NCBI GenBank assembly: GCA_964460855.1
Contig: CAYWQH010000006.1
Coordinates: 3,232 to 67,231 of the forward strand
DNA from: an uncultured Candidatus Saccharibacteria bacterium
GTDB lineage: Bacteria > Patescibacteriota > Saccharimonadia > Saccharimonadales > UBA10212
Direction of reading: 5' to 3'
DNA length: 64,000 bases
Within the stretch, counting starts at the first letter, position 1; every line of letters begins with the position of its first letter. Below the pieces are notes generated by a model, which worked only from the letters and a program-made list of their open reading frames with translations, was not told the origin of the DNA and did not search any database. The translations under genes were made by a program, and so were the position numbers. Below are positions 715 to 21,574 of the stretch, one piece after another.

Positions 715-1125
715 TTAGCCCGCTACTGCCCGGCCGAGAATAAAGCGCACAATTACTTGGGCCAGGGCCACGATGATCAACCCGATAATCGCGTAAAGAA
801 TGGTGTTTTTAGCACTGGTTACATTGGCGCTGTCGCCGCCGCTGGTAATGTAGCGCAGGCCGCCGATGATTATCATAATCACCGCGACTACTCCGACAAC
901 AAACGAAAACAGGTTAATTACCGTAGCGATCAGTTTATTAACTTTATCAGAGGCAGCCCCGGGCGTAATACCGCCGCTGGCACAGTCGCTGCTGACGTCT
1001 AAATTAGCCCCGGCACATAAGCTGTCTTGAATATCGGCTTGGGCGGCTACCGGCGCGGCGGCGGCCATCAAAAACAGCATGCTCACCGCAAAAGCTTGTA
1101 AGGAGAATAGTAGTCGCTTAAACAT
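715..1125 (-). CDS. TrbC/VirB2-like T4SS pilin paralog 1 (136 aa)
   Basis: Signal peptide (MFKRLLFSLQAFAVSMLFLMAAAAPVAAQA), a short 2-Cys variable segment, then the conserved two-helix pilin core ...LIATVINLFSFVVGVVAVIMIIIGGLRYITSGGDSANVTSAKNTILYAIIGLIIVALAQ... Confidence 0.65.
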   Translation of the reverse strand: MFKRLLFSLQAFAVSMLFLMAAAAPVAAQADIQDSLCAGANLDVSSDCASGGITPGAASDKVNKLIATVINLFSFVVGVVAVIMIIIGGLRYITSGGDSANVTSAKNTILYAIIGLIIVALAQVIVRFILGRAVAG

Positions 1126-1168
1126 AGATTAATTTTACTACAACGAAGCGCTTGGCAGAAGGAGTTAT

Positions 1169-1624
1169 TTAAGAAGCGCTATTGGTGGCACGGCTGAGTA
1201 CGAAGTGGACGATGAACTGGGCGAAAGCGACGATTACCAAACCGATAATGGCATAGAGGATGGTATTTTTAGCGGCCGATACACTGGCGCTATCGCCGCC
1301 GCTAGTGATATAGCGGAAGCCGCCGATGATGATCATTATTACGGCTACTACGCCGACAACGAACGAAAATACGTTGATGACGGTAGCAATCAGGTCGTTA
1401 ACGCTATTAGTGGATTGGGCATCACAATTATTAGTGCTTACGGTGGTGCCCGGATCCGGGGCTTTTAAAGTAGAGCCCTGGCACAAACTAGCTTGGATAC
1501 AGGCATCGCCGGAGCCGGCGGTACAGGTAGTGGTAGCGGCCATAGCAGCCGGCGCAATTGCCAGCGGTATAGCCACGGCAAAAAAGGCCGCCGTGCTAAT
1601 TAATAACTTTTTGATTTTGTACAT
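1169..1624 (-). CDS. TrbC/VirB2-like T4SS pilin paralog 2 (151 aa)
   Basis: Signal peptide, a 4-Cys Ser/Thr-rich variable segment, and the same core (GGFRYITSGGDSASVSAAKNTILYAIIGLVIVAF). SD AAGGA lies 8 nt upstream of the ATG (reverse complement of 1630-1640). Confidence 0.65.
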   Translation of the reverse strand: MYKIKKLLISTAAFFAVAIPLAIAPAAMAATTTCTAGSGDACIQASLCQGSTLKAPDPGTTVSTNNCDAQSTNSVNDLIATVINVFSFVVGVVAVIMIIIGGFRYITSGGDSASVSAAKNTILYAIIGLVIVAFAQFIVHFVLSRATNSAS

Positions 1625-1688
1625 AAGAATTTTCCTTATAATTTTATTTTACTTATCTTATACCATAACTGTTAACCAAGCAAAAGAG

Positions 1689-2135
1689 CTAGGTGGTGCG
1701 GGACAGGACAAAATGGACAATTATCTGGGCCATTGATACCACCACCAAGCCGATAATGGCATATAAAATGGTGTTTTTGGCCGCCGAAATGGCGCCGCTG
1801 TCGCCGCCGCTGGTAACATAGCGGAAGCCGCCGTAAATAATCATTATTACCGCCACTATACCAACAATCCAGGAAAATATATTTATGACGTTAGCTATGG
1901 TGTGGTTAACGCAAGTTGTAGAGTTGGTGGATGTAACGCCATTAATAGTGCAAGAAGCTTTGCCGGTAGACTGGGTGCCGCAAGTTACGGCATCGGCGCT
2001 GGTGGCAGGGTTGTTGCAATCAATTGTTGCCGCCGCATGTGCCGATATAGGCGCTAACGCCAGAATAAATAAAGAGCTGAGGCCGGTAAGGGCCAGCGCC
2101 AGGTTTCTTAAATGCTTATTCATATTAATGCTCAT
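1689..2135 (-). CDS. TrbC/VirB2-like T4SS pilin paralog 3 (148 aa)
   Basis: Signal peptide, a 4-Cys variable segment, and the core GGFRYVTSGGDSGAISAAKNTILYAIIGLVVVSMAQ. The start ATG overlaps the stop of the upstream gene (ATGA at 2132-2135); an alternative start is Met5 at 2123. Confidence 0.65.
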   Translation of the reverse strand: MSINMNKHLRNLALALTGLSSLFILALAPISAHAAATIDCNNPATSADAVTCGTQSTGKASCTINGVTSTNSTTCVNHTIANVINIFSWIVGIVAVIMIIYGGFRYVTSGGDSGAISAAKNTILYAIIGLVVVSMAQIIVHFVLSRTT

Positions 2136-2536
2136 AATAACTGATCCGCGATAAATGTCGCAATAACTACTGCCAGCAGGCCGACAACCAGCCCGACAAT
2201 GGCATATAAGATTGTGTTTTTAGCGGTAGTGACTTTGCCGGCATCGCCCCTGGCTGTTATGTACATCAAGCCACCGCTAATTAGTGCTATCGTGGCGGCG
2301 ATGCCTACTACGTAGCCAATAATTAATGTGGCGGTGTGCAAAATGCCTTTAGGCCCGGTAATCGGGTCGGTTACCGGTTTTTTTGCTTCTTGGCAGGTGG
2401 TACTGTTTGCCGATGGGCCGCTGCACACCGTTCTAGTCGGGAAAAAGTTCCAGGCGGCCGCCGGCCGGGCAGCAAACAGCTGGCTCGCAACAACCAGGGC
2501 GGTAAATACAAAAATAAGCAGGTAAAGTTTTTTCAT
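2132..2536 (-). CDS. TrbC/VirB2-like T4SS pilin paralog 4 (134 aa)
   Basis: Signal peptide, a 2-Cys segment, and the core SGGLMYITARGDAGKVTTAKNTILYAIVGLVVGLLAVV. ATGA overlap with the upstream gene at 2533-2536. Confidence 0.6.
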   Translation of the reverse strand: MKKLYLLIFVFTALVVASQLFAARPAAAWNFFPTRTVCSGPSANSTTCQEAKKPVTDPITGPKGILHTATLIIGYVVGIAATIALISGGLMYITARGDAGKVTTAKNTILYAIVGLVVGLLAVVIATFIADQLL

Positions 2537-2847
2537 TTGGCCAACCCCAGCACGAAGTTAACGATAATGAAAGCCGAGCCGGCAATAACCATACCTATGG
2601 CCGCATAAACAATGGTGTTGCGGGCTTTAACGATTTTAGCTGGGTCACCCTGCGAAGTAACATATTGCACGGCCGCCAGCATAATTACCACCACGCTGAT
2701 TGCGCCGATGACACCTAAAACATAATTAACGATGGTCAATAAAGTCGACGAATCAGCTTTGGCATGGGGAATAATAATGTTATTGGAGCCCTGCAGCGGG
2801 GCGCCAAAGCTAACCGCCGAAATTAATAAACCGTGGAGCTTGTTCAT
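2533..2847 (-). CDS. TrbC/VirB2-like T4SS pilin paralog 5 (104 aa, minimal form without Cys segment)
   Basis: Signal peptide followed directly by the core (AVQYVTSQGDPAKIVKARNTIVYAAIGMVIAGSAF). ATGA overlap at 2844-2847. Confidence 0.6.
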   Translation of the reverse strand: MNKLHGLLISAVSFGAPLQGSNNIIIPHAKADSSTLLTIVNYVLGVIGAISVVVIMLAAVQYVTSQGDPAKIVKARNTIVYAAIGMVIAGSAFIIVNFVLGLAK

Positions 2848-3224
2848 CCGCCTATTTTAGCCCCTATAAACCTGACCACAGCCGTGGCAATTATTACGAT
2901 GCCCATGCCAACCACGGCATTAATAATACCGGTGCGGGCCGAAGCGGCCTTTTCGGGGTTGCCTTGCGAAGTAACGTAGCGCAGTCCGGAAATAATTATG
3001 TAAATGGCCGCTAAAAAGCCGGCCAGCATCAGCAGGATCTCGATTATGGCGAAGCCGATAGCCCATAGGTCGTTTAAGCCGTTAACGGTGGGGCTGCATT
3101 TGTGGGTAACCGGGTCGGTTTCGCTTGGCAAATATTTATACCAGGTGGGCAAACCAAAGAATGAACCGCCGGGCGCGCACGACGCGGCGAAGTCGAAAGG
3201 TATTTTTATCAAAGCCAGGATCAT
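2844..3224 (-). CDS. TrbC/VirB2-like T4SS pilin paralog 6 (about 126 aa; the ORF is open up to 3266)
   Basis: Core ...IYIIISGLRYVTSQGNPEKAASARTGIINAVVGMGIVIIATAVV with a 2-Cys N-terminal segment. Met at 3224 forms an ATGA overlap with the stop of the 3221-3988 gene, matching the coupling pattern of the other junctions. The longer 3266 start would overlap the upstream gene by 46 nt. Confidence 0.5.
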   Translation of the reverse strand: MILALIKIPFDFAASCAPGGSFFGLPTWYKYLPSETDPVTHKCSPTVNGLNDLWAIGFAIIEILLMLAGFLAAIYIIISGLRYVTSQGNPEKAASARTGIINAVVGMGIVIIATAVVRFIGAKIGG

Positions 3225-3988
3225 TGCAAAATGCCTCCCGGTATCAGCCATTGCAGGAACGCCCACATAAACATGAAGGCCAGTAAGCCGATAACTGTAT
3301 TCATGATGCGTTTTTTGGCATTGGCCGTAGCCGTTGGGTTATCGCCGGCGGTGCTGTATTGGATGCCAGCTATTATTAATGATATTACCGCGACAATGCC
3401 AACGCCAGCCGCCAAGAAGTTTATGAAGGTTTTAAGCAACTTAATGATCGGGCTGGTACTGACGCAGGCGTTGACGTTATTGGGGTCGTTGCATTGGGGG
3501 CGGGAATTCAGGCCGTTGGGTGTCGAGGTAGGGCTGGTTTGGGAGTGGGCAGCCTGCCAGGCGGCCAGCTGGTCGTTAAGGGTCTTGCAAGAATTTTGCC
3601 GGAAAGTCAGTTGGGGCGTGTCTTGGACTTCCAAAAAGCAGCCGCTTTTAGGCGTGCCGGTAATAGTTTTATTGTTGCCGTCTAAAAAGACCGTGGGCTT
3701 GGTGGCGCCGGGATGCGTACTGGTGCCGGTAAAAGTACTGCAATCCGAGGGGTCGGAAAAACCGGTGGGCTGCTTAAAGTCCGTGGATACATAACAAAGA
3801 GATGGTTGTACGCCAGCATCTGCCGGCGGTATGGCACCCGCGGCCAATACCGGCGAGCGCATTAAAACCGGCACCGCCAATAAGGCCAGCAGCAATACCG
3901 TAAACAAGATTTTGGAAGTGTTTAGTTTAAGCGTCACGAGTATTTTATCCTGTAAACAACTATATAACACTTTTGCTTTGTAACCCAA
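3221..3988 (-). CDS. TrbC/VirB2-like T4SS pilin paralog 7 with a ~150-aa, 6-Cys ectodomain (255 aa)
   Basis: Hydrophobic signal region, a long Ser/Thr/Pro-rich segment with six cysteines, then the core IVAVISLIIAGIQYSTAGDNPTATANAKKRIMNTVIGLLAFMFMWAF. It is the first gene of the minus-strand operon. Confidence 0.55.
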   Translation of the reverse strand: MGYKAKVLYSCLQDKILVTLKLNTSKILFTVLLLALLAVPVLMRSPVLAAGAIPPADAGVQPSLCYVSTDFKQPTGFSDPSDCSTFTGTSTHPGATKPTVFLDGNNKTITGTPKSGCFLEVQDTPQLTFRQNSCKTLNDQLAAWQAAHSQTSPTSTPNGLNSRPQCNDPNNVNACVSTSPIIKLLKTFINFLAAGVGIVAVISLIIAGIQYSTAGDNPTATANAKKRIMNTVIGLLAFMFMWAFLQWLIPGGILQ

Positions 3989-3993
3989 CCAAA

Positions 3994-4026
3994 TAAGAGG
4001 GGTGGGGCCAATTGTTGTACCCCTTA
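3994..4026. promoter_or_regulatory. Divergent promoter region with an imperfect inverted repeat (TAAGAGGGGT ... ACCCCTTA)
   Basis: Only 60 bp separate the divergent pilin operon (start 3988) and the VirB6-like gene (start 4049). The repeat AAGAGGGGTG (3994-4004) / ACCCCTT (4019-4025) sits here, followed by a TATAGT -10-like element at 4035-4040. Confidence 0.3.
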
Positions 4027-4048
4027 TGCTATGGTATAGTCAAACAAG

Positions 4049-6802
4049 ATGGTAAACAGAGCAAAAATTGGGACCTGGTTAGTCTTTGTTTGTTTTTTCC
4101 TGACAATAGCCGCCAACTTTATACAGCCGGCCACCGGCCATGCCGCCGCGATCGGCGCAGTCAGTTTAGCCGAAGCCCAAAAAGGCCCTTATAACTTTAT
4201 TAACCGCTCCACCATAGAAGCCCATTTGGGCAGCCAAGTTATTGATTTTGTAGATACCAACCCGTTTGACACTAATCTTAATTATGCCGCCCAAGACTAT
4301 ACTTGTGACGGCAGCATACAATTACACACCAGCGCCGCTGACAAGACCTTTCAGCTTGGCGGCGTACCGGGTAATTTTTCAGCAACATTGTCGATGACGG
4401 CCTGGGACGCCCAAAATAACTGTAATAGCAAAGTTAACTGGGACATTACCCATCTAATCAACCACCAGCCAACAACCGGTACGGGCGAAGCCTTTTATTT
4501 CCAGTGGGTAGATAGCGGCACCATTAAAGTTTCGGTGGGCATTAACACTAAAAACGAAAACGACGGCGAAACTTACCGGGTTATCAACCCTAAGCAGCCG
4601 AACCGCTTTTTCAGGGATTCCGAAAACGGCCAGGATTGCCAGGATTATGTAGATGTGGACGTAGCTAATAATTCAGGCAACGAGCTAAACTGGCAGTGTA
4701 ACGGCAAGAAGCAGGTCCAGGTAGGCGCTAACTTCGTTAATGTTAACTCTATAACGGACGGCGGCAAAAATGGCAAAATCGCAACGATTGCCAGCCGCCA
4801 GTTCTTAATTGGCGGCGTCCAAAATAAGAATAAGCCGGCCACAGCGGCCAACACTGGCGGGGCCGCCGACCAAACCTGCGAGTCCGAAAACCATACCGGC
4901 CTGGAATACTTGTTTTGCCCGGTGGTTAACGCCCTGGACTCGACGATTAACGACTTAAACAGCCAGATAGAATCGCTGCTGACATTTAAAACTTCGGGCA
5001 AGGGCAGCGACTTTGGTGCCGGCAACGAAATGAAAACGGTGTGGAGCGCTTTCCGCTTAATTGCCACATTGCTGATAGTTCTGGCTATGATGATAGCCGT
5101 TATATCGCAAACTGCCGGCTGGGACTTTATAGACGCGTACACGATCAGGCGGCTGCTGCCCAAGCTGGTAATTGCCGCCATATTCATCCAAATTTCATTC
5201 CCGGTAACGGTGTGGCTGATTGATTTATTTAATGCCATTGGCGCCGGCGTGGCCGAGCTGATATTCGCGCCGTTTGGCGGCTCCGGCCATGTTACGCTGT
5301 CAAATTTGCTGGGCCATAATGTCGGCGGCGCCCAGTCGTTGGGCTTATTCGCCCTAGTGTCGGCCGGCCTTTTGTTTGGCGGCCTGGTTATGAATATTTT
5401 TGGCGTAGCCGCGCTGGCGCTTACTGCGCTAGTGGCGCTATTCGTCGGCTTTTTGGTATTGGTGCTTCGGAAAATATTGCTGGTGGTGTGCGTAATTATG
5501 GCGCCGATCGCTATCGTAGCTTGGATTATCCCGTCGCCGGGCATCCAAAAATGGTGGAAGCTCTGGCACGAAACCTTCTTTTCGCTGTTAATAATGTTCC
5601 CGATTATTATGGCCGCCATAGCCGTGGGCCGGGTGTTCGCCTCGATTGCCGTGACCACACAGGGCAACGGCACCATCGTGAATTTCTTTATTATCGTGCT
5701 GGGCTTTTTCGGACCGTTCTTTTTGCTGCCGTCAATTTTTAAACTGGGCGGGCGGGTGCTGCAAACGTTTACCGGCTTTACCAACGATAAAAGCAAAGGC
5801 CTGTTCGACCGTTCGCGCAACTGGCTGGGCGACCAGCAAAAATCCAAGAAAACCCGCAAAGAGCGCGAAGCCCAAAGGCGCATGGCCACCGGTGATTACC
5901 GGCGGCGCGACCGGCTAATGGGCCGGCCGGCGACCGACCGGTTCACGACCGGTACGGTTCCGTTTGCTTCTAAATCAAACCGTATTAAAGCCCAAAAAAT
6001 TGGTGAACAGTATGAAGCTTTCCTGGCTGAAGAAATGAAAAGCGAAAAAATTAAAGCCGATAACGTTATATCTAACCTAGACCAAGACGGCCAAAAAGAG
6101 TACCGGCGCTTAATGCTTACCGGTGGACGGGGCAGCATTAAGGGCCTGGACGGAACGACCATAGATGTTGACGGATCGCACGCCACCGAAGCCCAGCGCC
6201 GCGTTGTGCTCGATAACGCTTTAGGCTTTAAGGATTACCAGAATGTTGACGAATATTTAAGAACTGCCGATGCTTCGCGCAACGAAACTATGCGCCAAGA
6301 AGCTACCCGTTTCCGGCAAGCAAATGTAGGCGAGCTAAACAAATCATTGCAGCACTCCCTTGTGCCCGCCAAGGTCAATGAAACAACTGGCCAACTTGAC
6401 GTATCTGCCGGGTTTGCATTTGCAGCCGGCAAGAACCCAGAGGCTATAGTAGGCATGAGCGGTTACGAAGTACAGAGTATTTTGGCGAACACCGAAGGCG
6501 CCGACCTTGAAAAGTTCTTAGCCAACTACGCGGCAGCCGCGTCCGGCAAAGACCGGCTGGCGCTTGACCAGGGAGGCGCCGAGGCCGTTAAAGCTTTTTT
6601 AAATAACGACCCTAATCAAACGATAGGCAAAATTAATGGCTCATGGGTAGATCCAAAAACTGGTATAACCGAAACTGGCAAGCCAAAAATTATTGGATCT
6701 ATTGATATGTCTAAAGCTGCCCGTATTAATCCGGATACACGGAATATTATTAATAAAGAAATAAACGATAACGGGACTATTGTACCCAGGCAGAACCCCT
6801 AA
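4049..6802 (+). CDS. VirB6/TrbL-like polytopic T4SS membrane protein with a large N-terminal ectodomain and a charged C-terminal domain (917 aa)
   Basis: Signal peptide, a ~300-aa extracytoplasmic domain, then 7 or more hydrophobic helices (TVWSAFRLIATLLIVLAMMIAVISQ ... FFIIVLGFFGPFFLLPSIF). A lysine/arginine/glutamate-rich C-terminal 300 aa follows. Position and topology match VirB6/TrbL of monoderm T4SSs. Confidence 0.5.
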   Translation: MVNRAKIGTWLVFVCFFLTIAANFIQPATGHAAAIGAVSLAEAQKGPYNFINRSTIEAHLGSQVIDFVDTNPFDTNLNYAAQDYTCDGSIQLHTSAADKTFQLGGVPGNFSATLSMTAWDAQNNCNSKVNWDITHLINHQPTTGTGEAFYFQWVDSGTIKVSVGINTKNENDGETYRVINPKQPNRFFRDSENGQDCQDYVDVDVANNSGNELNWQCNGKKQVQVGANFVNVNSITDGGKNGKIATIASRQFLIGGVQNKNKPATAANTGGAADQTCESENHTGLEYLFCPVVNALDSTINDLNSQIESLLTFKTSGKGSDFGAGNEMKTVWSAFRLIATLLIVLAMMIAVISQTAGWDFIDAYTIRRLLPKLVIAAIFIQISFPVTVWLIDLFNAIGAGVAELIFAPFGGSGHVTLSNLLGHNVGGAQSLGLFALVSAGLLFGGLVMNIFGVAALALTALVALFVGFLVLVLRKILLVVCVIMAPIAIVAWIIPSPGIQKWWKLWHETFFSLLIMFPIIMAAIAVGRVFASIAVTTQGNGTIVNFFIIVLGFFGPFFLLPSIFKLGGRVLQTFTGFTNDKSKGLFDRSRNWLGDQQKSKKTRKEREAQRRMATGDYRRRDRLMGRPATDRFTTGTVPFASKSNRIKAQKIGEQYEAFLAEEMKSEKIKADNVISNLDQDGQKEYRRLMLTGGRGSIKGLDGTTIDVDGSHATEAQRRVVLDNALGFKDYQNVDEYLRTADASRNETMRQEATRFRQANVGELNKSLQHSLVPAKVNETTGQLDVSAGFAFAAGKNPEAIVGMSGYEVQSILANTEGADLEKFLANYAAAASGKDRLALDQGGAEAVKAFLNNDPNQTIGKINGSWVDPKTGITETGKPKIIGSIDMSKAARINPDTRNIINKEINDNGTIVPRQNP

Positions 6803-6804
6803 TC

Positions 6805-7956
6805 ATGGCAGTATATAAAGTAATCCAGGATATCGAAGCCGAAGACAAAATCTTAGGCCCGTTTGGCCTTAAGCAATTTGGCTACGCCTTTGTGGCAGTG
6901 TTTTGCGCATTTATAAATTTCCAGTTTATCGTCCATTCGGACATCGGCCCGGCCCGATTCGTTGGAGTTTTAATGTTTATTTGGCCGATGATATTATTCG
7001 GAGTTTTGGCCGCGCCGCTGGGCGGGGCCCAGCCAACCGAGGTATGGCTGTTAGCGCGCCTCCGCTTTTTTTTGAAGCCGCAAAAGCGGATATGGGACCA
7101 AAGCGGCGCCAAGCAACTGGTTACCATAACCGTGCCTAAAAAAGTAGAGAAGCACCTGACCAAAGATTTTACCCAGTCCGAAGTGCATAGCCGCTTGCAG
7201 GCCTTGGCTACAACGCTGGACAGCCGCGGCTGGGCGGTTAAAAACGTTTCGGTTAACTTGTTTGCCGAGCCCGGTTACTTAACCGACACCAATACCAACG
7301 AAGACCGGTTGGTTGGTACCGAAAGCCTGCCGCAAGAAGTGCCGGCCATAGACGTACGCGCCGAAGACGACATTTTAGATACCCGGTTTAACCCGACCGC
7401 CCACCACGTAGACGTGCTGGTCAAAGAAAAAACCGAAGAAGTAAAAAAACAAACCATCCAGAATTTCAACCAGGCGATTAATTCCGCTGCTTCCCAGGAT
7501 AATGACAAGCATGGGGACGGCAGGCACCATAAAGAACGCCGCCAGGACAAGCTGCCGGCCGATAATTCCGGCGAGCCGCTGGTGACCTTTGACCGAAGCG
7601 TAGTCAGCCCCGGCGACGACCCCCATAGCCGTGGTGCGGCCAAGTTAACGCCGGCCGAAGAAGCCAAATTCACCAAATTAATGCACGAACTCAGCGCCCA
7701 CGACAAGCACCGCGAAAGCTTTAGCCGTTTGCCTAAAATCATGCCGCTCAACAAGCAAAGAGAGCTTATAGACCAGATGGACCGGATGACAGACGAACAG
7801 CGTACTGCTAAACTTAAAGAACTAGCCAATAATGACGATTACTCGGTGGCGACGATTGCCAAACAAGCTAAACGCGAATCCGCCAAAAGCGGAGAAAAAC
7901 CTCGCCAACCCGAGAAACATAATGATGATGACGAGGTGGTAGTTTCACTGCGCTAA
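6805..7956 (+). CDS. PrgI/VirB3-like membrane protein with a long disordered charged C-terminal extension (383 aa)
   Basis: The N-terminal ~110 aa (MAVYKVIQDIEAEDKILGPFGLKQFGYAFVAVFCAFINF..., two TM helices) resembles the PrgI family found upstream of VirB4 in Gram-positive T4SSs. The remainder is low-complexity, rich in K/E/D/H. Stop/start lies 2 nt from the VirB6-like gene. Confidence 0.4.
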   Translation: MAVYKVIQDIEAEDKILGPFGLKQFGYAFVAVFCAFINFQFIVHSDIGPARFVGVLMFIWPMILFGVLAAPLGGAQPTEVWLLARLRFFLKPQKRIWDQSGAKQLVTITVPKKVEKHLTKDFTQSEVHSRLQALATTLDSRGWAVKNVSVNLFAEPGYLTDTNTNEDRLVGTESLPQEVPAIDVRAEDDILDTRFNPTAHHVDVLVKEKTEEVKKQTIQNFNQAINSAASQDNDKHGDGRHHKERRQDKLPADNSGEPLVTFDRSVVSPGDDPHSRGAAKLTPAEEAKFTKLMHELSAHDKHRESFSRLPKIMPLNKQRELIDQMDRMTDEQRTAKLKELANNDDYSVATIAKQAKRESAKSGEKPRQPEKHNDDDEVVVSLR

Positions 7957-7981
7957 ACGCGGCGAAGGTGGGAGCTTAATT

Positions 7982-8839: not shown

Positions 8840-10752
8840 TGGCTTTCGGTAGGAAAAAGCAGCAAGTCGACCCGATACTGCTGGCCCAGCAGCAGCAGAT
8901 GCGCGAGCAGGCCGAAGTTTCGCAGGCTTTCCAAAAAGGCATTACCGCGCTGCGCGATTTTATCGCCCCCAGCTCGCTGGTATTTAACAGCACGTCCTTC
9001 CAGCTGGGCACGCGTTATGCCCGGACTTACTTCGTATATATGTACCCCCGGCAAATTTATACCGGCTGGCTGAGCGGCATGGTTAACCTCGACGAAATCA
9101 TGGATTTATCGATAATCGTTTATCCGGTTAACAGCCAGGTCGTGTTGGAAAACCTGCGCAAAAAAGTCGGGCAGTTAGAAGCCGGCATCCAGATAGACGC
9201 CGAAAAAGGCCGGGTGCGCGACCCCGGCAAACAGGCGGCCATTTTAGACGCCGAAGAAATGCGCGACAAGCTGCAAGTGGGCGAAGAGCGCTTTTTCCGT
9301 TTTGGCATGTACTTTACGCTGTACGGGCATTCGATGGACGAGTTGGAATTTGTGTGCCATAAGGTTGAGTCGATGCTCGGCCAGCAATTGATATATTCCA
9401 AGCCGGCCACCGCCCAGCAGGAACAGGCTTTCAACAGCACGGCGCCGCAGTTTTTAGACCAGCTGCAAATTTACCGCAACATGAACACCGGGGCAATCAG
9501 CACCAGTTTTCCGTTTACCTCGGCTGATCTCAGCGACGACCACGGCATATTATATGGAATCAACATGCACAACTCCGGGCTGGTTATTTTTGACCGCTTC
9601 AGCTTAGAGAACGGCAACGCGGTAGTATTTGCCAAATCCGGCGCCGGCAAAAGTTTTACGGTTAAGCTCGAAGCCCTGCGCAGCATGATGCTGGGCACCG
9701 AAATATTTATTATCGACCCCGAAAACGAATACCAGCGGATGTGCGATGCCGTCGGCGGCGCTTATGTGCGCCTCAGCCTTAACAGCCCGACCCGCATAAA
9801 CCCGTTTGACCTGCCCAAAGTTATCGACGCCGAAGAAGCCGACAACGCGCTGCGCTCGAACTTAATTACGCTGCACGGGCTGCTGCGGCTGATGATGGGC
9901 GGGGCGGTGGCCCAAATCAGCCAAACTGGCGGCTCCCAAACGGTGCCGGCCCTAACGCCGGCTGAAGAAGCCGACCTCGATGCCGCCTTAATTGAAACTT
10001 ATGCTAAAGCCGGCATCACCAACGACCCGCTGACCCATGCCTCGCAGCCGCCGACTGTTACTGATTTATATGAAACGCTGCTGCACATGGGCGGCACCGG
10101 GCCGCAGCTGGCCCAGCGCCTGCGCAAATACACCAGCGGGACTTTCGCCGGTATTTTCAGCCAGCAAAGCAACATCAATATTAATAACCCGATGGTGGTA
10201 TTTAATATCCGCGACCTCGAAGACGAGCTTCGGCCGGTAGCCATGTATATCGTGCTGAACTTTATTTGGAATAAAACCAAAGCCGACCAAAAGCGCCGGA
10301 TGCTGGTGGTTGACGAAGCCTGGCAGTTAATGAAATACGAAGACAGCGCCAACTTTTTGTTCAGCCTGGCTAAACGGGCCCGCAAATACAACTTGGGCAT
10401 TACCACCATTACCCAGGACGTCGAAGACTTTATGGGCAGCCGCATGGGCCGGGCCATCGTAGCCAATGCCAGCATGCAAATTTTACTTAAGCAATCGACC
10501 AGCGCCGTAGACGTGCTGGCCGACGTATTTAAATTAACCAGCGAAGAGCGCAAACGCTTAAGCCAGTTCCCGGTCGGGCAGGGCCTGTTCTTTGCCGGCC
10601 AAAACCATGTCCATATCCAAATTGCCGCCAGCCCTACCGAAGCCGGCCTGATAACAACTAACCCCCAGCAGGTCCAGCAAATCCAAGCCGGCGAAATTGA
10701 CCAGCCGCAAGGCACAATCGACCTGAGCAACCAGCTGACGCCTGGGGTATAA
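8839..10752 (+). CDS. virB4: VirB4/TrsE-family T4SS ATPase (637 aa)
   Basis: Walker A AKSGAGKSF, Walker B RMLVVDEAWQLM, motif GITTITQDVEDF, plus the typical VirB4 N-terminal region (FVYMYPRQIYTGWL). Confidence 0.9.
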   Translation: MAFGRKKQQVDPILLAQQQQMREQAEVSQAFQKGITALRDFIAPSSLVFNSTSFQLGTRYARTYFVYMYPRQIYTGWLSGMVNLDEIMDLSIIVYPVNSQVVLENLRKKVGQLEAGIQIDAEKGRVRDPGKQAAILDAEEMRDKLQVGEERFFRFGMYFTLYGHSMDELEFVCHKVESMLGQQLIYSKPATAQQEQAFNSTAPQFLDQLQIYRNMNTGAISTSFPFTSADLSDDHGILYGINMHNSGLVIFDRFSLENGNAVVFAKSGAGKSFTVKLEALRSMMLGTEIFIIDPENEYQRMCDAVGGAYVRLSLNSPTRINPFDLPKVIDAEEADNALRSNLITLHGLLRLMMGGAVAQISQTGGSQTVPALTPAEEADLDAALIETYAKAGITNDPLTHASQPPTVTDLYETLLHMGGTGPQLAQRLRKYTSGTFAGIFSQQSNININNPMVVFNIRDLEDELRPVAMYIVLNFIWNKTKADQKRRMLVVDEAWQLMKYEDSANFLFSLAKRARKYNLGITTITQDVEDFMGSRMGRAIVANASMQILLKQSTSAVDVLADVFKLTSEERKRLSQFPVGQGLFFAGQNHVHIQIAASPTEAGLITTNPQQVQQIQAGEIDQPQGTIDLSNQLTPGV

Positions 10753-10777
10753 TTAAGCAAAATGAGAGGGTATAAAA

Positions 10778-13700
10778 GTGGCGGTGCCAGACTCGCAGCC
10801 GAGCATCGATCCGGAAGAGCCTGAAAACCAGGGCCACCCGGAAGAGGATTTTAGCGAAGCGCTAGATAAAAAATACGCTTCGCCGCTGGACCGTGACCCC
10901 GAAACCAGTGATGATGACGATGATAGCGGCGGCGGAGACCAAAGCGAAGGCGGCGATGCCGGTTCCGGCGGAAAAGACGCGGCCGAAAAAGGCGAAGACA
11001 AAAAAGAGGCCGCCGACAACCAGGTAGGCCGTGGCTATACCAAAAGCAAAAAACCAGACGACAAGAAAAAGGGCGGTTTTGGCTCGATGTCGGGAAATCG
11101 CAAGTGGCTGCTGGGCGCCGGCATTGGCGGCAGCATAGTGGCGATAATAATTTCCATTATTTTTGGCTACCTCAGCATTTTTAAACTGGACGGCATAGTG
11201 AGCAATGTCGACCAAAAAGCTTTTATACGCTATAACTCGGCGTCCGACAAGCGCTCCGACAAATGGTTGCGCAGCTACTTTATACTGCGGCTGACCCAGC
11301 TAGAGGGCAACGGCGTCGACCCCGACAGCGAATACTTCAGGGCCCATAAAGTTGATACCAACAACCCGGTCCGCGACTGGTACCACACCATGCGCACCAG
11401 CCGGTTCGAAGCCGATTTGGCTAAGCAGGGGGTAGTAATCGCGACCCGTCCCGGCCAGGACGGCCTGCAATTCCACGTGCTGCAAGTAGACGGCAAGGAC
11501 TTTGCCGGTCTGGACGCCAAAGACGTGCGCAAAGGCAAAATAGAGGAACTGCTGAGATCCGGCGATGCCGGCACCTTAAACCGGGTTGATATTGATTTTA
11601 ATAAACCGGGCGCCAGCAAAGAAGCCCGGGCGGTTATTAAAAAAATCGTTAACGAAAACACCCAAGGCGCTAATGTGCTTAAAAAGCGGCAGCTGCGCAA
11701 AGCCATCGCCAACATGACCGGCGTCCGCGACTGGACCTTTTTCGAAAAAACCAAGGACAAAGCCCGTAACAAAAAAATAGATATCCGCGATAAGATTGTC
11801 AGCAAAGCCATCCCCAAAAATATCAGGGCCGGCAAATTCGTGCGCTGCCTGTTCGGCATCGACTCCAGCTGCCACTACAGCGCCGACCCCAGCGACCCAG
11901 CCAATGGAGCGCCCAATGAAGAACTGACCGGCACGCCGGAACCAGGCCATGACGGCGTTAAAGACCCTAAAACCGGCAATATTATCCCGTTTGGCGATAC
12001 GGCCACTATATTGAAGCAAATTATTAGCAAAGCAAACGTGGTGCTGGCCGCCGCTAATGTTGTTGGGACGCTAGACGTTCTAGCCCACCTGCACGACGCC
12101 GTCCATAACCAGCAGCTCAGCAAAATGGTTTCAGTAGCCCGCGGCACCCAGGCCATGGGCCTGTACCAGGTTTTCGAAACCAGCCGCGACCAGGTAAAAT
12201 CCGGCGAGCTGACCGGTGACGAAATGAACAGCATGCTGCAAGTAGTGGGCTCAGCCGGCAGCAGCGAAGGCTGGAGCAAAGTAATGGACGGCAACGGGGC
12301 GGGCAATACCGCCCAAAGCGACAGCGGCAAAGTATACGCTGCCTCAAATATTGACCCTACGGACGGCTCGAACCGAGATAAATATTGTTCGGCCGAGCAC
12401 CAGGCCTGGATTACCAAGAAAGAAAACCTCGTAGCCGCCAATAAGGAATACCATTATTTATGCCCGTCCAAGCAAATTGGCGGGGCATCGAACGCCAGCG
12501 ACATCGAAAGCGCTTACAATAGCAGTATCGGCCCGGTCGTCGACCCGTTGGTGGGCGCCTATAACGACGCCCGCGGCCTGCCTTTAATAGGCGGGCTTCT
12601 AACTATAGTCAATAGCGTATCCAATTGGCTGACCAGCCAGATATCGGGAGTGATTGGAAACATCCTTAGTACTTTAGGATTGCAAGATAATATAGACGAG
12701 TTAATGAAGTGGGTAATCGGGGAAGTCAGCGGTTTTTTGGGGGCCGGACCGATATTGCAAGAAGATACTACGCACGCCACCCCGGCAGGAGTGTATATGA
12801 ACTGGCTCATCCAGGGCGGGGCCTACTCGGCCGAAGCCGGCTCGCGTTTTATGGGCGCTAACGCTACAACCAGCCAAAGCAAAGCCCAGGCCGAATCCAA
12901 TGTAAATAGCTACAGCGCCAGCCAGTTCGCCAGCCAAAGCACTTTCCAAAAATACTTTGCCATAACTAATACAAACTCTTTGCTAGGTAAAGTCGCGTTT
13001 TCGGCCGTTGAAAATAACCAGTCTAAAGGGGCCTTGTTCGTAAGCGTATTCCATTCCGTGCCGCGCCTGTTTGCCGCTGCCTTCAGCCTGCCGTTCCATA
13101 GCGCCCGGGCGGCCGCCAATAACCCTTATGCCGCTTCTAACTTTGCCGGCATCCAAACCTACGACTGGCCGCAAGAATGCTACGACCTCGACCCGCTGGA
13201 CGACAGCCCGCAAAGCGGCACAAACATTACGCAAGTTCTTCACAATGTGAACCCGAACGAACTAACTTGGGACTTGGTTAATAATTCCGAGAACTTTTAT
13301 AAGTTCGTATACGATAAAATCGGCAACGACCCCAACGCCGACGACACCGCCAAGAAAATATATAACTGCCACTTGCTGGACACCGGCGTGCGCGGCAGCC
13401 TCGGCAATATATACGGCTACACTAATGACAACGGCCTGGAAGACAGCCAGGCGTCGTCCGACCAGACTAACCCGACGGACAGCGGCGGATCCGGCGTGTC
13501 GCCGGACGGGTTTGTATTCCCGCAAGTCACCACCAAAGCTTCCCTTAAAGCACACGGCTGGAACCCGGATTGTGTTAATCCAATCTCTTCAATGGGCCCA
13601 GGCGACCGCAGTGACTTATGCCACCACGACTACCTTGCTGCCGACATTTTTAACGCTACCGGTACGAAAGTCGTAGCCGTGCGGCCGGGCCGCATCGTTA

Positions 13701-14041
13701 GCGCCCACGACTCCGGTTCGATCGGTATGACAGTAAGGTTATATAGCGACAAGGCGCTGGGCGGCGACGGTTTGTGGTATTACTTCGCTCATATGCTCAA
13801 ATCGAGCGAAGGCGGAAAAGGGCCTAACGGCGGGCTGTTTGTAAATGTTGGCGACGTGGTTAAAGCCGGCGACCAGCTTGGCCAGGTCGGCACCGACGCC
13901 GACGCCGAAGGTACGCCATCGCATACCCACTTTGACGTAAGCCCGGTAGAGAATGGCTTCCACCGCGGATTTGACGGGACGGCCGGGCCGCTGCTTGACC
14001 CCCAACCAGCATTAAAAGCGGCATATCAGGCGCTGCCATAA
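10778..14041 (+). CDS. Membrane-anchored T4SS cell-wall hydrolase with a C-terminal M23 peptidase domain (PrgK/TcpG-like, 1087 aa)
   Basis: GTG start with SD GAGAGGG (10764-10770). Acidic disordered N-terminus (DDDDDSGGGDQSEGGD), one TM helix (LLGAGIGGSIVAIIISIIFGYL), and a large ectodomain. C-terminal M23 motifs HHDYLAADI (HxxxD) and HTHFDV (HxH). Confidence 0.8.
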   Translation: MAVPDSQPSIDPEEPENQGHPEEDFSEALDKKYASPLDRDPETSDDDDDSGGGDQSEGGDAGSGGKDAAEKGEDKKEAADNQVGRGYTKSKKPDDKKKGGFGSMSGNRKWLLGAGIGGSIVAIIISIIFGYLSIFKLDGIVSNVDQKAFIRYNSASDKRSDKWLRSYFILRLTQLEGNGVDPDSEYFRAHKVDTNNPVRDWYHTMRTSRFEADLAKQGVVIATRPGQDGLQFHVLQVDGKDFAGLDAKDVRKGKIEELLRSGDAGTLNRVDIDFNKPGASKEARAVIKKIVNENTQGANVLKKRQLRKAIANMTGVRDWTFFEKTKDKARNKKIDIRDKIVSKAIPKNIRAGKFVRCLFGIDSSCHYSADPSDPANGAPNEELTGTPEPGHDGVKDPKTGNIIPFGDTATILKQIISKANVVLAAANVVGTLDVLAHLHDAVHNQQLSKMVSVARGTQAMGLYQVFETSRDQVKSGELTGDEMNSMLQVVGSAGSSEGWSKVMDGNGAGNTAQSDSGKVYAASNIDPTDGSNRDKYCSAEHQAWITKKENLVAANKEYHYLCPSKQIGGASNASDIESAYNSSIGPVVDPLVGAYNDARGLPLIGGLLTIVNSVSNWLTSQISGVIGNILSTLGLQDNIDELMKWVIGEVSGFLGAGPILQEDTTHATPAGVYMNWLIQGGAYSAEAGSRFMGANATTSQSKAQAESNVNSYSASQFASQSTFQKYFAITNTNSLLGKVAFSAVENNQSKGALFVSVFHSVPRLFAAAFSLPFHSARAAANNPYAASNFAGIQTYDWPQECYDLDPLDDSPQSGTNITQVLHNVNPNELTWDLVNNSENFYKFVYDKIGNDPNADDTAKKIYNCHLLDTGVRGSLGNIYGYTNDNGLEDSQASSDQTNPTDSGGSGVSPDGFVFPQVTTKASLKAHGWNPDCVNPISSMGPGDRSDLCHHDYLAADIFNATGTKVVAVRPGRIVSAHDSGSIGMTVRLYSDKALGGDGLWYYFAHMLKSSEGGKGPNGGLFVNVGDVVKAGDQLGQVGTDADAEGTPSHTHFDVSPVENGFHRGFDGTAGPLLDPQPALKAAYQALP

Positions 14042-14042
14042 T

Positions 14043-15932
14043 ATGAAAAACTTATCTTCTTATATTAATAAGCGTTACCTGGTGGCCGGCATGTCGCTAA
14101 TATATTTATTTGCCTTCAGCTCCCCGGTGTTCGCAGCAACCGATCCTTATAAAGCGCTGCAGTGGCCGTTTTACGATCCGGGCTGCGGCAGTACAGCTGA
14201 TACAACTCCGGTTAGCGACGCGCATACTGATTTAAATTACCCTACCACGCTTCAGGACACGGCCATAATAAAAGCCATCATCGATTATATCCGCGGCGCG
14301 TTCCCTAAAAGCACTTTTTTATCTAATCCGGCGGGCGCAGACGTGACAATTACGTCGTTAGTGGCCAGCGCAAAAAAGAATAACGTCAGCCCCTTTATTG
14401 TCGTGGCCATTGCCCAGAAGGAAAGCCAGTTAGGCGACCCGGTCGACTTTAACGTCAGCCACGGCAATAACTCATTCGGCCGCACTGCCGCCCCTGGCCA
14501 GCCGAGCTTCCAGGGCTCGCACACCTGGTATAAATGGGAATCTATAAAAGCCAGCGTGGATTATACCGACCCCTCCAACCGCGGGCAAAAAGCCGGCGAC
14601 GAAGTATCGTTTTTGCGCTCAGTCTACGGCGACACGATTGATTCCGGCGACCTGACGCAAATGATCAGCCGCTACGCCCCGCAATCCGACGGCAACGATA
14701 CGGCCGGCTATATAACCCAAGTTCAGGCAATGTTGGATAAATTAACTAAAGCTTCCGGCGGCGCCGGCACTGATATTTCTTCTACCGGCAACAGTACCGA
14801 TAGTACCGGCAGCTGCGCCTGTCCGGCCAGCTCCAGCACGGCCGCAAACACCGACGTCGCAGCCGGAATCGGCAAAGGCATGACCGCCAATGCCCAAAAG
14901 AAATTCAAAGATATACTAGCCGGTGCCGGTGGCAAATTTAAAGTCGCGCCCGAATTTATAGCGTCCTTTTACTATGCCGAAAATTCCCGCACCGACGACT
15001 CTACCAATAACGCCGACTCGGCCCAGCCGCCGCCGGTTACCGGTAATGGAAAATGGCGCGAGCCGGCGCCACCGTACGGCACTGGCGCGGCCTATGACAG
15101 GAACGGCTTTACGGCTTCCGGCCCGTTCCAGTTTATTGATTCGACCTGGGCCAGCTTTAAAGTTGACGGCAACGGCGACGGCAAAGCCGACGTAAACGAC
15201 TTGGCCGACGCCACCTACGGCGCGGCTAAATATTTGGCGTCTAATGGCGGCGTAGTGGGGGCTTCCGATAAGAAATTACGCGACGCCGCATTCCTATACA
15301 ACCACAGCTCTACTTATGTGGATTCGGTAATGAATACTTATAAATATTTAAAGAATGGCAGTACAACTACAGCTTCGGCATCCGGTACAACTACTGACTG
15401 TAGCAGCGCGTCTTCAACTGATACTACGGGTTATAAAAATCCGCTGCGGGATGTTAAAAACCTGGTGCCGGAGCGCGATGACCAAGGTGTAGACTACGCC
15501 GGCAGCGGGCCAATTTACGCCATCGGGACCGGCATGATTAACTATATAAAATATTTCGCAGATTCGGGTTGGCCGCCAAAACCAGCGGGCACCTTCATCA
15601 ACTACACGCTCAAAGGCGGTAAAGCCGATGGAAAATCCGTATATGTGGCCGAAAACTGCGCGCCGCCCAAGGTAAAGTTAGTAGTAGGCGATACGGTGCA
15701 TAACGACACCATTCTGTGCAACCTAATAGACGCCAGCCCGCATATGGAAATTGGCTGGGCGAAGCCCGGCCAAGGCGAAGCCTATGCCCATAACATTTAT
15801 ACTGAAGGCGATTTAACCGCTTACGGCTTAAACTTTTCGCAGTTCCTGGAAAGTTTAGGCGCGCCCCCCGGCACTACCTTCAACGGGCCGGTAGTCGGAA
15901 CTTTAGAATCGGGTTGGCCACAATGGAAGTAG
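14043..15932 (+). CDS. Secreted lytic transglycosylase-domain cell-wall hydrolase (VirB1-like, 629 aa)
   Basis: Signal peptide. GPFQFIDSTWASF...ADATYGAAKYL matches the SLT-type GxMQF..TW motif seen in T4SS and phage lytic transglycosylases. A second lysozyme-like segment (IAQKESQLG) and a C-terminal domain are also present. Confidence 0.6.
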   Translation: MKNLSSYINKRYLVAGMSLIYLFAFSSPVFAATDPYKALQWPFYDPGCGSTADTTPVSDAHTDLNYPTTLQDTAIIKAIIDYIRGAFPKSTFLSNPAGADVTITSLVASAKKNNVSPFIVVAIAQKESQLGDPVDFNVSHGNNSFGRTAAPGQPSFQGSHTWYKWESIKASVDYTDPSNRGQKAGDEVSFLRSVYGDTIDSGDLTQMISRYAPQSDGNDTAGYITQVQAMLDKLTKASGGAGTDISSTGNSTDSTGSCACPASSSTAANTDVAAGIGKGMTANAQKKFKDILAGAGGKFKVAPEFIASFYYAENSRTDDSTNNADSAQPPPVTGNGKWREPAPPYGTGAAYDRNGFTASGPFQFIDSTWASFKVDGNGDGKADVNDLADATYGAAKYLASNGGVVGASDKKLRDAAFLYNHSSTYVDSVMNTYKYLKNGSTTTASASGTTTDCSSASSTDTTGYKNPLRDVKNLVPERDDQGVDYAGSGPIYAIGTGMINYIKYFADSGWPPKPAGTFINYTLKGGKADGKSVYVAENCAPPKVKLVVGDTVHNDTILCNLIDASPHMEIGWAKPGQGEAYAHNIYTEGDLTAYGLNFSQFLESLGAPPGTTFNGPVVGTLESGWPQWK

Positions 15933-15939
15933 GTAAACA

Positions 15940-17313
15940 ATGAACGAACCAAACCCTTTAAGAAAAATTATAAGATGGGGCATTATAGCTGTCGCAGCAC
16001 TGCTGGTTTTATATCTACTTGTTTATTTCTTAACTAGCGGTACGGTTACGGTAAATACATCAGACGCCTCAAACTCCATTAACGTAAGCGTACTGGGGGC
16101 CGAAGAAAAGCTGGCAAAACCAGTAAAAGCACAGCATAAAACTTTCCGCCTCAAAGCCGGTGATTACTCAGTGGTTGTAAGCAACGGCTCCAACAAATCG
16201 GCCCAAGCTATAAAAGTATCTGCCCTCAAAAAGCAAGAAATTACTTTAAATCCAGCCGCTGCGCTTGCCGTCGAGCCAGTAATCTCCCGCGACGCCGGCA
16301 GTATAAACCCCCGGCAATCTTCATTAAAATTCCTGGACCTTGGCCTGAGTACTGTCATAAATATCGGCAATAATAATAGCTTTACGGCCCCTTATAAGGG
16401 CGTCGAATTAAGCCAAGTTGCCTGGGCAGGCGATACGGGCGCGGCCCGCGACCCGAAAGGCCAATTAATAACGATCAATAATAACAGCGCCAGGCCAACC
16501 GGGATATTTGGCGTTGATGATGTCGGCGCTTCAACCAATGGAAACGCCTATTACACGAAAGGTAAAGATTTATTCCTGTTTAAGCCTACCGGGGACGGCA
16601 CCAAAATATACAGTTCCGACGAACAGGATTTCAGCTTCTATAATGGCCTGAATAAAGTTGTTATAACTGAAGGCGGCGGCAACAAAGGTAAATCTTCTAG
16701 CAACACCGTAAAACTTATCGACCAAACTGGCGCTGTCTCAAAACATTCAGTTGCCCAGGGTTACTTTAGCTGGGCAGGCGAAGATAAAGCGGTGTTCGCC
16801 GGCGGAGCTAATTATTCTCAATTATTAAGCGGCAGCTTGGACCCCCAAGCTAAAATATACGGCCAAAGCCGGGTAGCCGCCTGGCTGGGAGATGACGTTT
16901 ATTACGGGGTAGCTGATGAGCTTTGGAAATATTCAACAACCACTAGCCAAAGCAGCCTTATCGCCAATATGCCTTTCTCTGATAAAATCCTCGAAATCGC
17001 CCCGGAACCAGGCGGAAAATCAATCTATCTAATTACTCAGGCGGGCAGCGGGGATACCGAAATAAAGCGGGTTAATTTAACTGGTAAGGCAGTTAGTGAT
17101 AACTTATCTAAGCTGCAGTCTGTGTTGCCGTTAGAGCTGCCATTCTGCAACGTAAGCCTTTTGAATTACGCGGCTCCGGCTATACTCATGTCGCCGACTT
17201 CGGATATGCCAATTAGTTATTGCCAGAACCAGGCTTTAACGGAGTTCCAGGACCGGGGTATTAACGCAGCCGGTTTGCAATTTACGCCGGAGGAATCTAT
17301 CCCAAGGGAATAA
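15940..17313 (+). CDS. N-terminally membrane-anchored extracytoplasmic protein, last gene of the T4SS operon (possible VirB8/TcpC-like scaffold, 457 aa)
   Basis: TM anchor IIRWGIIAVAALLVLYLLVYFL followed by a beta-rich ectodomain. Assignment rests on position only. Confidence 0.35.
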   Translation: MNEPNPLRKIIRWGIIAVAALLVLYLLVYFLTSGTVTVNTSDASNSINVSVLGAEEKLAKPVKAQHKTFRLKAGDYSVVVSNGSNKSAQAIKVSALKKQEITLNPAAALAVEPVISRDAGSINPRQSSLKFLDLGLSTVINIGNNNSFTAPYKGVELSQVAWAGDTGAARDPKGQLITINNNSARPTGIFGVDDVGASTNGNAYYTKGKDLFLFKPTGDGTKIYSSDEQDFSFYNGLNKVVITEGGGNKGKSSSNTVKLIDQTGAVSKHSVAQGYFSWAGEDKAVFAGGANYSQLLSGSLDPQAKIYGQSRVAAWLGDDVYYGVADELWKYSTTTSQSSLIANMPFSDKILEIAPEPGGKSIYLITQAGSGDTEIKRVNLTGKAVSDNLSKLQSVLPLELPFCNVSLLNYAAPAILMSPTSDMPISYCQNQALTEFQDRGINAAGLQFTPEESIPRE

Positions 17314-18355: not shown

Positions 18356-18362
18356 TGGCTTA

Positions 18363-21083: not shown

Positions 21084-21089
21084 GCCCAA

Positions 21090-21571: not shown

Positions 21572-21574
21572 CTT

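Follow-up and report, generated by a model that had tools for sequence, protein, structure and literature searches.

The window described here, a 64-kb stretch of DNA analysed over its whole length, comes from a Saccharimonadales chromosome (Saccharibacteria, candidate phyla radiation, CPR) and carries at positions 715-17313 a locus encoding a type IV secretion system (T4SS). An array of seven pilin genes occupies the minus strand, and 60 nt from it begins a plus-strand operon with intergenic gaps of -1 to 25 nt. All open reading frames (ORFs) of the locus are intact and densely packed, and there is no room for further genes because the 16.6 kb holds only ~230 nt of non-coding DNA. An initial annotation had read from this DNA a pilin array, a VirB6-like protein, a PrgI/VirB3-like protein, an accessory protein of 285 residues, a VirB4 ATPase, an M23 hydrolase, an SLT hydrolase and a membrane-anchored protein. 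The ORF listing and the Pfam matches, judged by gathering scores (26.6 bits for T4SS_pilin, PF18895; 27 bits for PrgI, PF12666), bear out this inventory across 715-17313, which comprises the following features:

715-3988, minus strand: seven VirB2/TrbC-type pilin paralogs, all above the PF18895 gathering score (ORFs 715-1125, 1169-1624, 1689-2135, 2132-2536, 2533-2847, 2844-3266 and 3221-3988).
4049-6802, plus strand: polytopic membrane protein of 917 residues, probable extended-VirB6 equivalent (from hydropathy and position).
6805-7956, plus strand: PrgI/VirB3-like protein of 383 residues (PF12666, 29.4 bits, residues 5-96).
7982-8839, plus strand: soluble TrsD-like protein of 285 residues, resembling the VirB4 N-terminal domain (from Foldseek and homolog names).
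8839-10752, plus strand: VirB4-type ATPase of 637 residues (P-loop_TraG 9.9e-30, AAA_10, DUF87).
10778-14041, plus strand: membrane-anchored protein of 1087 residues with a C-terminal M23 peptidase (PF01551, 38.9 bits).
14043-15932, plus strand: exported multi-domain muramidase-like (SLT/lysozyme-like) protein of 629 residues (SLT_2, 28.1 bits).
15940-17313, plus strand: protein of 457 residues, last gene of the operon (N-terminal transmembrane segment 14-32, PEGA-like Ig domain).

The VirB4 assignment, made from sequence, is secure. The Walker A (AKSGAGKS at residue 265) and Walker B (LVVDEA) motifs are both intact, and the protein matches the C-terminal domain of a Firmicute (monoderm) VirB4 (PDB 4AG5) at 6.7e-50, compared to 3e-6 for the proteobacterial TrwK. 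It is 80-86% identical to its counterparts in the 80 related loci used for comparison (L001-L080), which are the 80 best VirB4 relatives out of at least 567 confirmed in species-representative genomes. Nearly all of these are labelled as Saccharibacteria or Saccharimonadales metagenome-assembled genomes, with a few labelled 'bacterium' or Patescibacteria and one Dormiibacterota. The PrgI/VirB3-like protein, whose gene is found in 75 of the 80 related loci, displays two transmembrane-like segments (25-43 and 47-65) followed by a hydrophilic extension of ~300 residues.

The soluble 285-residue protein encoded between these two has no significant Pfam match and more than 7,200 homologs, many of them labelled 'type IV secretory pathway VirB4 component' by the Joint Genome Institute. 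Structures were compared by searching AlphaFold 2 (AF2) models with Foldseek against the PDB. The model of this protein has a core (residues 51-248) with a predicted local distance difference test score (pLDDT) of ~63-88, except for a loop at 172-190, and its top 14 matches are all R388 TrwK/VirB4 structures (E 2e-3 to 3e-2 over ~190 columns), with the next match at E 0.25. Alignment of the 285-residue family to the N-terminal 240 residues of the VirB4 of the same locus by hhalign gave a probability of 0.3%, from shallow profiles (Neff ~2), and a profile search of the family against PDB sequences returned nothing. The model fits a TrsD-like protein resembling the VirB4 N-terminal domain, in agreement with the published TrsD assignment (PMC12102498).

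The 917-residue protein begins with an N-terminal hydrophobic segment and a Cys-containing region of ~300 residues, followed by six transmembrane-like segments (334-564) and a hydrophilic C-terminal domain of ~350 residues. Searches of Pfam and of PDB sequences returned no match, and its homologs match TrbL only at non-significant E values of 0.25-5. The AF2 model, built from 13 sequences, is poor (pLDDT 43); TrwI/VirB6 is among its top Foldseek matches, again at non-significant values (E 0.35-3.6). The proteins SEML1_0011 and SEML1_0013 of Southlakia epibionticum, which occupy the same position, find TrbL/VirB6 proteins as their best Foldseek matches (PMC10633639). The 'VirB6-like' label of the initial annotation thus stands on the polytopic architecture and position of the protein and not on any significant sequence or structure match. 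The database labels PF19590.5 (917-residue family) and PF26593.2 (285-residue family) were not reproduced by hmmscan against the Pfam copy used.

The seven pilins score 30.7-55.1 bits against PF18895, and several also touch the TrbC/VirB2 family. Each starts with a signal-peptide-like N-terminus and continues with a variable region, in most cases Cys-bearing, and two C-terminal hydrophobic helices with a conserved loop, a predicted arrangement that matches VirB2. A comparison of this small-gene array to pertussis toxin subunits, drawn in 2020, is rejected here; the analogy is superseded because all seven genes encode VirB2-type pilins. The first three pilins are 63-79% identical over their C-terminal 72 residues, compared to 20-47% for the remaining ones, and a 236-nt repeat family (D1, 72-73%) spans their genes, features by which the three are taken to be recent paralogs. 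Among 39 complete relatives, six pilin genes are the rule (33 loci), with seven in three loci, nine in two and five in one, and the additional pilin of the window appears to have arisen by recent duplication within the first three genes (715-2135).

Downstream of virB4, the 1087-residue protein features a transmembrane segment (111-129) and a Peptidase_M23 domain at residues 955-1055. Its first ~900 residues constitute a scaffold that profile iteration resolves as a single family in 68 of the 69 related Saccharimonadales loci whose contig reaches recF, the informative set for gene order; the family lies directly after virB4 in 67 of them and second in one more. An alignment of the C-terminal 170 residues of this family displays no conserved M23 motifs, which led to the finding that the C-terminal enzyme domains are swapped. 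By their last 160 residues, the 69 proteins sort into 25 unrelated clusters, and for 49 of the 69 the nearest relative by scaffold carries a different C-terminus. In L008, L016 and L021 the corresponding place at the extreme C-terminus is taken by VanY, and other members carry, by Pfam, a GDSL lipase, Amidase_2, alginate lyase or endonuclease/phosphatase fold. The 629-residue protein has an additional SLT match and a weak Glucosaminidase match. Among relatives, Phage_lysozyme2 is found in 17 of 25 proteins at this position, and M23, Amidase_3, NlpC/P60, CHAP, C39-like, GDSL or GH3 domains are combined there with a phage-tail lysozyme.

The PEGA-like Ig domain of the 457-residue protein bears at residues 70-76 the motif RLxxGxY, which is common to its family, and the region that follows is possibly β-propeller-like. 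A homolog search of a 5.8-billion-protein collection returned only the protein itself, and profile iteration links it to the last-gene proteins of 23 related loci, with some homologs matching PEGA or CarboxypepD_reg; a profile search of the family against PDB sequences gave nothing usable. From its predicted products, the locus as a whole is a minimal inner-membrane core of monoderm type joined to seven Sec-type pilins, two large lytic proteins and a PEGA-like protein with a membrane anchor.

The order hsp20 (plus strand), pilins (minus), VirB6-PrgI-TrsD-VirB4 (plus), three to four further plus-strand ORFs, recF-dnaN-dnaA (minus) and rnpA (plus) is kept in all 69 informative loci, each from a species-level genome, and recF invariably lies 4.7-8.5 kb after VirB4. 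The placement between hsp20 and recF-dnaN-dnaA reported in the initial annotation therefore holds both in the window and in every informative relative, as does the gene order around dnaA. One further locus, L026, looks rearranged: its pilin-like ORFs lie ~11 kb past virB4, and recF, dnaN and dnaA were not found within the flank. Conservation across the 80 relatives is uneven, with median identities of 84% for VirB4 and 66% for the TrsD-like protein, compared to 39% for PrgI, 30% for the VirB6-like protein, 37-52% among the pilins and 25-32% in the three proteins encoded after virB4 (30% for the M23 protein); the cytoplasmic motor changes far more slowly than the exposed parts. The neighbouring genes and the region beyond them are as follows:

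18-332, plus strand: hsp20, small heat-shock protein, left neighbour (Pfam HSP20 1.6e-18; N-terminus beyond the window edge).
17297-21089, minus strand: recF-dnaN-dnaA, right neighbour, convergent with the T4SS operon (Pfam SMC_N, DNA_pol3_beta, Bac_DnaA).
18363-19448, minus strand: dnaN (Pfam DNA_pol3_beta).
19710-21089, minus strand: dnaA (Pfam Bac_DnaA).
19449-21699, no strand: probable oriC neighbourhood, with DnaA-box-like 9-mers in both spacers flanking dnaA.

The hsp20 gene occupies the same site in 39 relatives (median identity 88%), and the other flanking genes follow with 70% (dnaA), 64% (dnaN) and 51% (recF); the conservation of hsp20 exceeds that of dnaA, and its position is invariant. 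The Southlakia hsp20, SEML1_0020, was called essential by transposon sequencing (Tn-seq; PMC10633639). Between hsp20 and the pilins lies a strong terminator-like hairpin with a 12-bp stem (352-378), and apart from this hairpin 3' of hsp20, scans for promoter and terminator consensus sequences were at chance level. At the other border, the 3' ends of the T4SS operon and of recF overlap by 17 nt. The longest recF ORF (17297-18442) overlaps dnaN by 80 nt and its SMC_N match begins at residue 30; the true start is probably the ATG at 18355, 7 nt past the dnaN stop. After dnaA follow rnpA, yidC and jag on the plus strand.

DnaA-box-like 9-mers number two in the dnaA-dnaN spacer (19500-19562) and four upstream of dnaA (21156-21282); the two spacers flanking dnaA thus account for six of all 17 one-mismatch matches to TTATCCACA across the window. 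The GC content falls to 0.447 at 21-22 kb, and GC skew, which within the window tracks the coding strand and not replication, did not place the origin. If oriC coincides with the DnaA-box clusters, the 13-kb main T4SS operon (4049-17313) is transcribed head-on to the replication fork and the pilin array co-directionally with it, an arrangement kept in 69 relatives. For a locus positioned to be highly expressed, a head-on orientation would be unexpected. The dosage of genes near the origin matters mainly where rounds of replication overlap. The initial annotation had suggested that the locus benefits from high gene dosage next to the origin, and a replication-associated dosage effect has likewise been proposed from the proximity of dnaA, dnaN and rnpA in a survey of CPR genomes (PMC12102498). 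Such a benefit is a hypothesis, and a weak one for organisms such as these slow-growing epibionts, which are not known to run overlapping rounds of replication.

The composition of the locus is that of its surroundings. Its GC content is 0.518 compared to 0.514 in the rest of the window, and its tetranucleotide distance to the rest is 7.3, against 11.4 +/- 1.9 for control segments of the same size. Only chance repeats of 14-18 nt were found across the locus borders, none of them att-like, and the window contains no notable inverted or direct (oriT-like) repeats. Searches of the window for tRNA genes and Rfam families returned none, and there is no tRNA-type integration site because there is no tRNA gene. 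No Pfam match to type IV coupling protein (T4CP), relaxase, integrase, recombinase or transposase families was found in the locus or in the large ORFs of the window, as the initial annotation had stated of the 17 kb for VirD4, relaxase, integrase and transposase; among window ORFs of at least 250 residues, a Walker A motif coincides with a P-loop family match only in VirB4, RecF, DnaA and the ATPase Wzt of an ATP-binding cassette (ABC) exporter. The flank beyond hsp20 was read in two relatives, in full (10 kb) in L120 and for 2 kb in L077, and over these distances it encodes no VirD4, relaxase or integrase, the genes that for the initial annotation would have marked an ICE there, and in L120 no transposase either. 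It encodes instead housekeeping functions, with a comFC-like gene and a small transmembrane protein in both, followed in L120 by alr, DUF1697, EamA, HtrA-like and HIT genes. The comFC-like product is a phosphoribosyltransferase with a double zinc ribbon (L077, 1260-1871; L120, 9054-9728), and this neighbour probably explains the competence gene reported in 2020 beside the T4SS region of TM7x.

Native composition and the lack of flanking repeats argue that the locus is not an integrative conjugative element (ICE), and its conserved synteny across 69 species-level genomes firmly excludes one. The T4SS locus is vertically inherited and fixed between hsp20 and recF-dnaN-dnaA across the order, and the earlier view of a chromosomally fixed system that is not an intact conjugative element is upheld by synteny, composition and the lack of att repeats alike. 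The same view had held that the canonical dnaA-dnaN-recF-gyrB synteny is broken exactly at this point. It is correct that gyrB does not follow recF, and the gene is found nowhere in the 64-kb window; the arrangement is an old one common to the lineage, rather than a change peculiar to this genome. The separation of recF from gyrB dates back to the ancestor of the group, and the Southlakia gyrB is gene 0145 (PMC10633639).

The 43 kb outside the locus region contain no mobile-element gene and no further T4SS-type ATPase. A surface glycopolymer region (23666-53657) encodes glycosyltransferases, a Wzm/Wzt ABC exporter, rmlABCD for dTDP-rhamnose, a Wzy_C (O-antigen-ligase-type) protein, GtrA, a CHAP protein of 627 residues and a LexA-type helix-turn-helix protein without a peptidase domain. 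It is followed on the plus strand (53956-63968) by eight ORFs, several with signal-peptide-like or hydrophobic N-termini, of which the last (936 residues) has the sole Pfam match (CBM_4_9) and two neighbours (56729-57772 and 57835-58860) are paralogs with 66% identity; this may be a surface-structure or adhesin cluster.

The system itself is already known. In Nanosynbacter lyticus TM7x and across Saccharibacteria, a T4SS region that includes an array encoding small secreted proteins was described (McLean et al. 2020; PMC7427843), and Tn-seq subsequently identified the T4SS cluster of Candidatus Southlakia epibionticum ML1, pilins included, as essential for growth on Actinomyces, with nearly all of its genes called essential and no recognisable coupling or relaxase proteins among them (Wang et al. 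2023; PMC10633639). In that cluster, dnaA, dnaN and recF are followed by a pair of small exported proteins, of which one is a PEGA protein, then by a lysozyme-like protein, one of 1,113 residues, VirB4, one of 293 residues and PrgI; an NTF2-like gene flanked on either side by a VirB6-like one comes next, and six pilins lead on to hsp20 and comFC (PMC10633639). The gene order in Southlakia (SEML1_0004-0019) and TM7x is the same as in the window, again in a cluster without relaxase or T4CP, and it is near certain that the locus is the ortholog of SEML1_0004-0019. The two differ in detail. Southlakia has two VirB6-like proteins separated by the non-essential NTF2-like (VirB8-fold) gene and six pilins, compared to one VirB6-like protein (917 residues) and seven pilins in the window. 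The protein of ~1,100 residues ends in an M23 domain in the window and in a DD-peptidase fold in SEML1_0007. SEML1_0006, with lysozyme-like domains, is the counterpart of the 629-residue protein, and the PEGA protein SEML1_0005 that of the 457-residue protein, which is a single gene comprising PEGA domain plus extension where Southlakia has two small genes.

The survey of the CPR VirB4 clade, which placed it as sister to MPF_FATA (Quinonero-Coronel et al. 2025; PMC12102498), catalogued TrsD, PrgI and VirB6, reported VirB2 arrays of 2-11 genes and found almost no relaxases. The window agrees with it in VirB4, the TrsD and PrgI partners, the VirB2 array, the absence of a relaxase and the proximity to dnaA, and nothing essential differs. 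The conjugative T4SSs of the MPF_FATA class (pCF10 Prg/Pcf, pIP501 Tra and ICEs) have in common with the window VirB4, PrgI/VirB3, TrsD and probably a polytopic VirB6 equivalent, and their multi-domain wall hydrolase PrgK (M23-like, SLT, CHAP) is analogous to the lytic proteins of the locus. Unlike the locus, these systems reside on plasmids or ICEs with T4CP, relaxase and oriT, and they lack a VirB2 pilin and make contact through adhesins, whereas the locus encodes seven pilins. A functional likeness may also be drawn to the Ptl system of Bordetella pertussis and the VirB system of Brucella, T4SS clusters without a coupling protein that serve host interaction and not conjugation (PMC12857230; PMC12102498), although both are diderm systems with a VirB7/9/10 outer-membrane core and known protein substrates. 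A review of December 2025 repeats the view of the survey and offers, as speculation, the pilus as a route for exchange with the host or uptake from it (PMC12857230). The locus, then, belongs to the published Saccharibacteria T4SS/pilus cluster, to which the window adds one more uncultured Saccharimonadales example.

The best explanation of the locus, and in our judgement a likely one, is a vertically inherited chromosomal T4SS of Saccharibacteria that serves as a conduit for host contact and not for conjugation; the host-directed conduit mechanism as such is evenly balanced between acceptance and doubt. Under this mechanism, the pilins would be inserted into the membrane by Sec, and a VirB4 hexamer docked on VirB3/VirB6 would extract them and polymerise them into a pilus or tube, as VirB4 is known to act in pilus biogenesis of Gram-negative systems. 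The lytic proteins would open the wall of the epibiont itself and, more likely, the envelope of the actinobacterial host, which is taken as the likelier target because the C-terminal enzyme domains are swapped. The assembled structure would act as a contact-dependent conduit for protein export into the host or import of host molecules. The suggestion of the initial annotation that the apparatus might mediate attachment to or exchange with a host cell coincides with the published view (PMC10633639; PMC12102498; PMC12857230).

Several points weigh against this explanation. Membership of the 917-residue protein in VirB6 lacks significant support by Pfam, PDB sequence or Foldseek, and the window covers only 64 kb of the genome. 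Multi-domain wall hydrolases such as PrgK also remodel the wall of their own cell in Gram-positive conjugation, and the lytic domains alone do not prove host targeting because PrgK-like hydrolases serve the own wall too. No substrate, effector or pilus of this system has been observed in any Saccharibacterium, and the function is called speculative in the recent review (PMC12857230). Lastly, relatives have unlinked T4CP-like genes, and a coupling-protein-dependent route, even DNA transfer, is conceivable (PMC10633639).

Among the competing explanations, the one that survives best, although improbable, is a pilus for adhesion only, without a translocation channel. Seven diversified pilins with variable exposed regions and the lack of a linked coupling protein are what such a pilus would predict, but adhesion of Saccharibacteria is already assigned to type IV pili (PMC12206443; PMC12857230), and an adhesin would need neither two large lytic enzymes dedicated to it nor an extended VirB6, although all of these points are indirect.

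A functional system for conjugation or DNA export, whose coupling protein, relaxase and oriT would lie at other places in the genome, is very unlikely. T4CP genes are often unlinked to virB4, and 5,713 VirD4-like homologs were counted in 2,918 CPR genomes, but no more than 103 CPR genomes encoded a relaxase, in 15 of them near virB4 (PMC12102498). Southlakia itself carries two T4CP-like genes away from its T4SS, and the initial claim that the system has no coupling protein accordingly holds for the locus and not necessarily for the genome. The first, SEML1_0293 (PF10412/PF12696), is non-essential, whereas the Southlakia T4SS is essential (PMC10633639). The second, SEML1_0142, is a protein of 1,019 residues of the TraD/TraG TraM-recognition type with an FtsK-like P-loop, and was called essential at all three time points (PMC10633639); its gene is unlinked to the T4SS and sits three genes from gyrB (0145). 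The 2025 survey names only a non-essential t4cp in Southlakia (PMC12102498), and the essential SEML1_0142 has possibly been overlooked in the literature. Against conjugation stand also the lack of a relaxase, oriT-like repeat or second T4SS ATPase in the window, and the requirement of the T4SS for growth, which is not expected of a conjugation system.

Equally little probability attaches to a DNA-uptake T4SS that, together with the neighbouring comFC, would feed nucleotides or competence, for which the ComB system of H. pylori is a precedent. Saccharibacteria are unable to make nucleotides, and the comFC-like gene lies just past hsp20 in relatives and in Southlakia (SEML1_0021, K02242), but SEML1_0021 is non-essential (PMC10633639) and competence of Southlakia depends on type IV pili and ComEC (PMC12857230). 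Deletion of comEC abolished transformation and left the cells viable while the T4SS is essential (PMC12857230), which disfavours uptake of DNA as the role of the T4SS. A decaying or domesticated ICE inserted between recF and gyrB, for which the derivation of the machinery from monoderm conjugation systems (the MPF_FATA sister clade; PMC12102498) and the missing canonical recF-gyrB adjacency might speak, is scarcely credible and for the present-day locus effectively refuted by an identical position and order in all 69 informative relatives and Southlakia, by native composition without integrase or att repeats, and by intact, tightly packed ORFs whose counterparts are essential in Southlakia; because any insertion predates the radiation of the order, 'ICE' no longer describes the locus.

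In the proteins encoded after virB4, lytic domains exchanged among genomes whose VirB4 is at least 80% identical resemble, by analogy, polymorphic toxins or phage lysins, although a scaffold identity of ~30% limits how recent the swaps can be called. Domain swapping suggests adaptation to a host envelope rather than housekeeping of the own wall. A description of C-terminal domain swapping on the proteins after virB4 was not found in the searchable literature, including the CPR survey (PMC12102498), and the observation may be new. It is possible, but on present evidence doubtful, that the two proteins are host-envelope-directed enzymes, each a conserved, membrane-anchored scaffold with an exchangeable lytic domain, and not VirB1-like helpers acting on the own wall.

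No T4SS other than that of Saccharibacteria is known to be essential for the growth of its owner, a requirement established by Tn-seq in Southlakia; the system is also a pilin-bearing T4SS in a monoderm and the leading candidate for how ultrasmall epibionts exploit their hosts, views established or proposed from 2020 to 2025. To these, the present analysis adds synteny over 69 species-level genomes, the contrast in conservation between motor and exposed parts, and the shuffling of lytic domains among close relatives, which offers a handle on host specificity; of all these points, only domain swapping and the possibly overlooked SEML1_0142 extend what has been published. If the enzymes after virB4 are indeed directed at the host envelope, the choice of lytic domain together with the diversified pilins would match the epibiont to the wall chemistry of its actinobacterial host and help set its host range, and the T4SS would be a wall-breaching feeding device.

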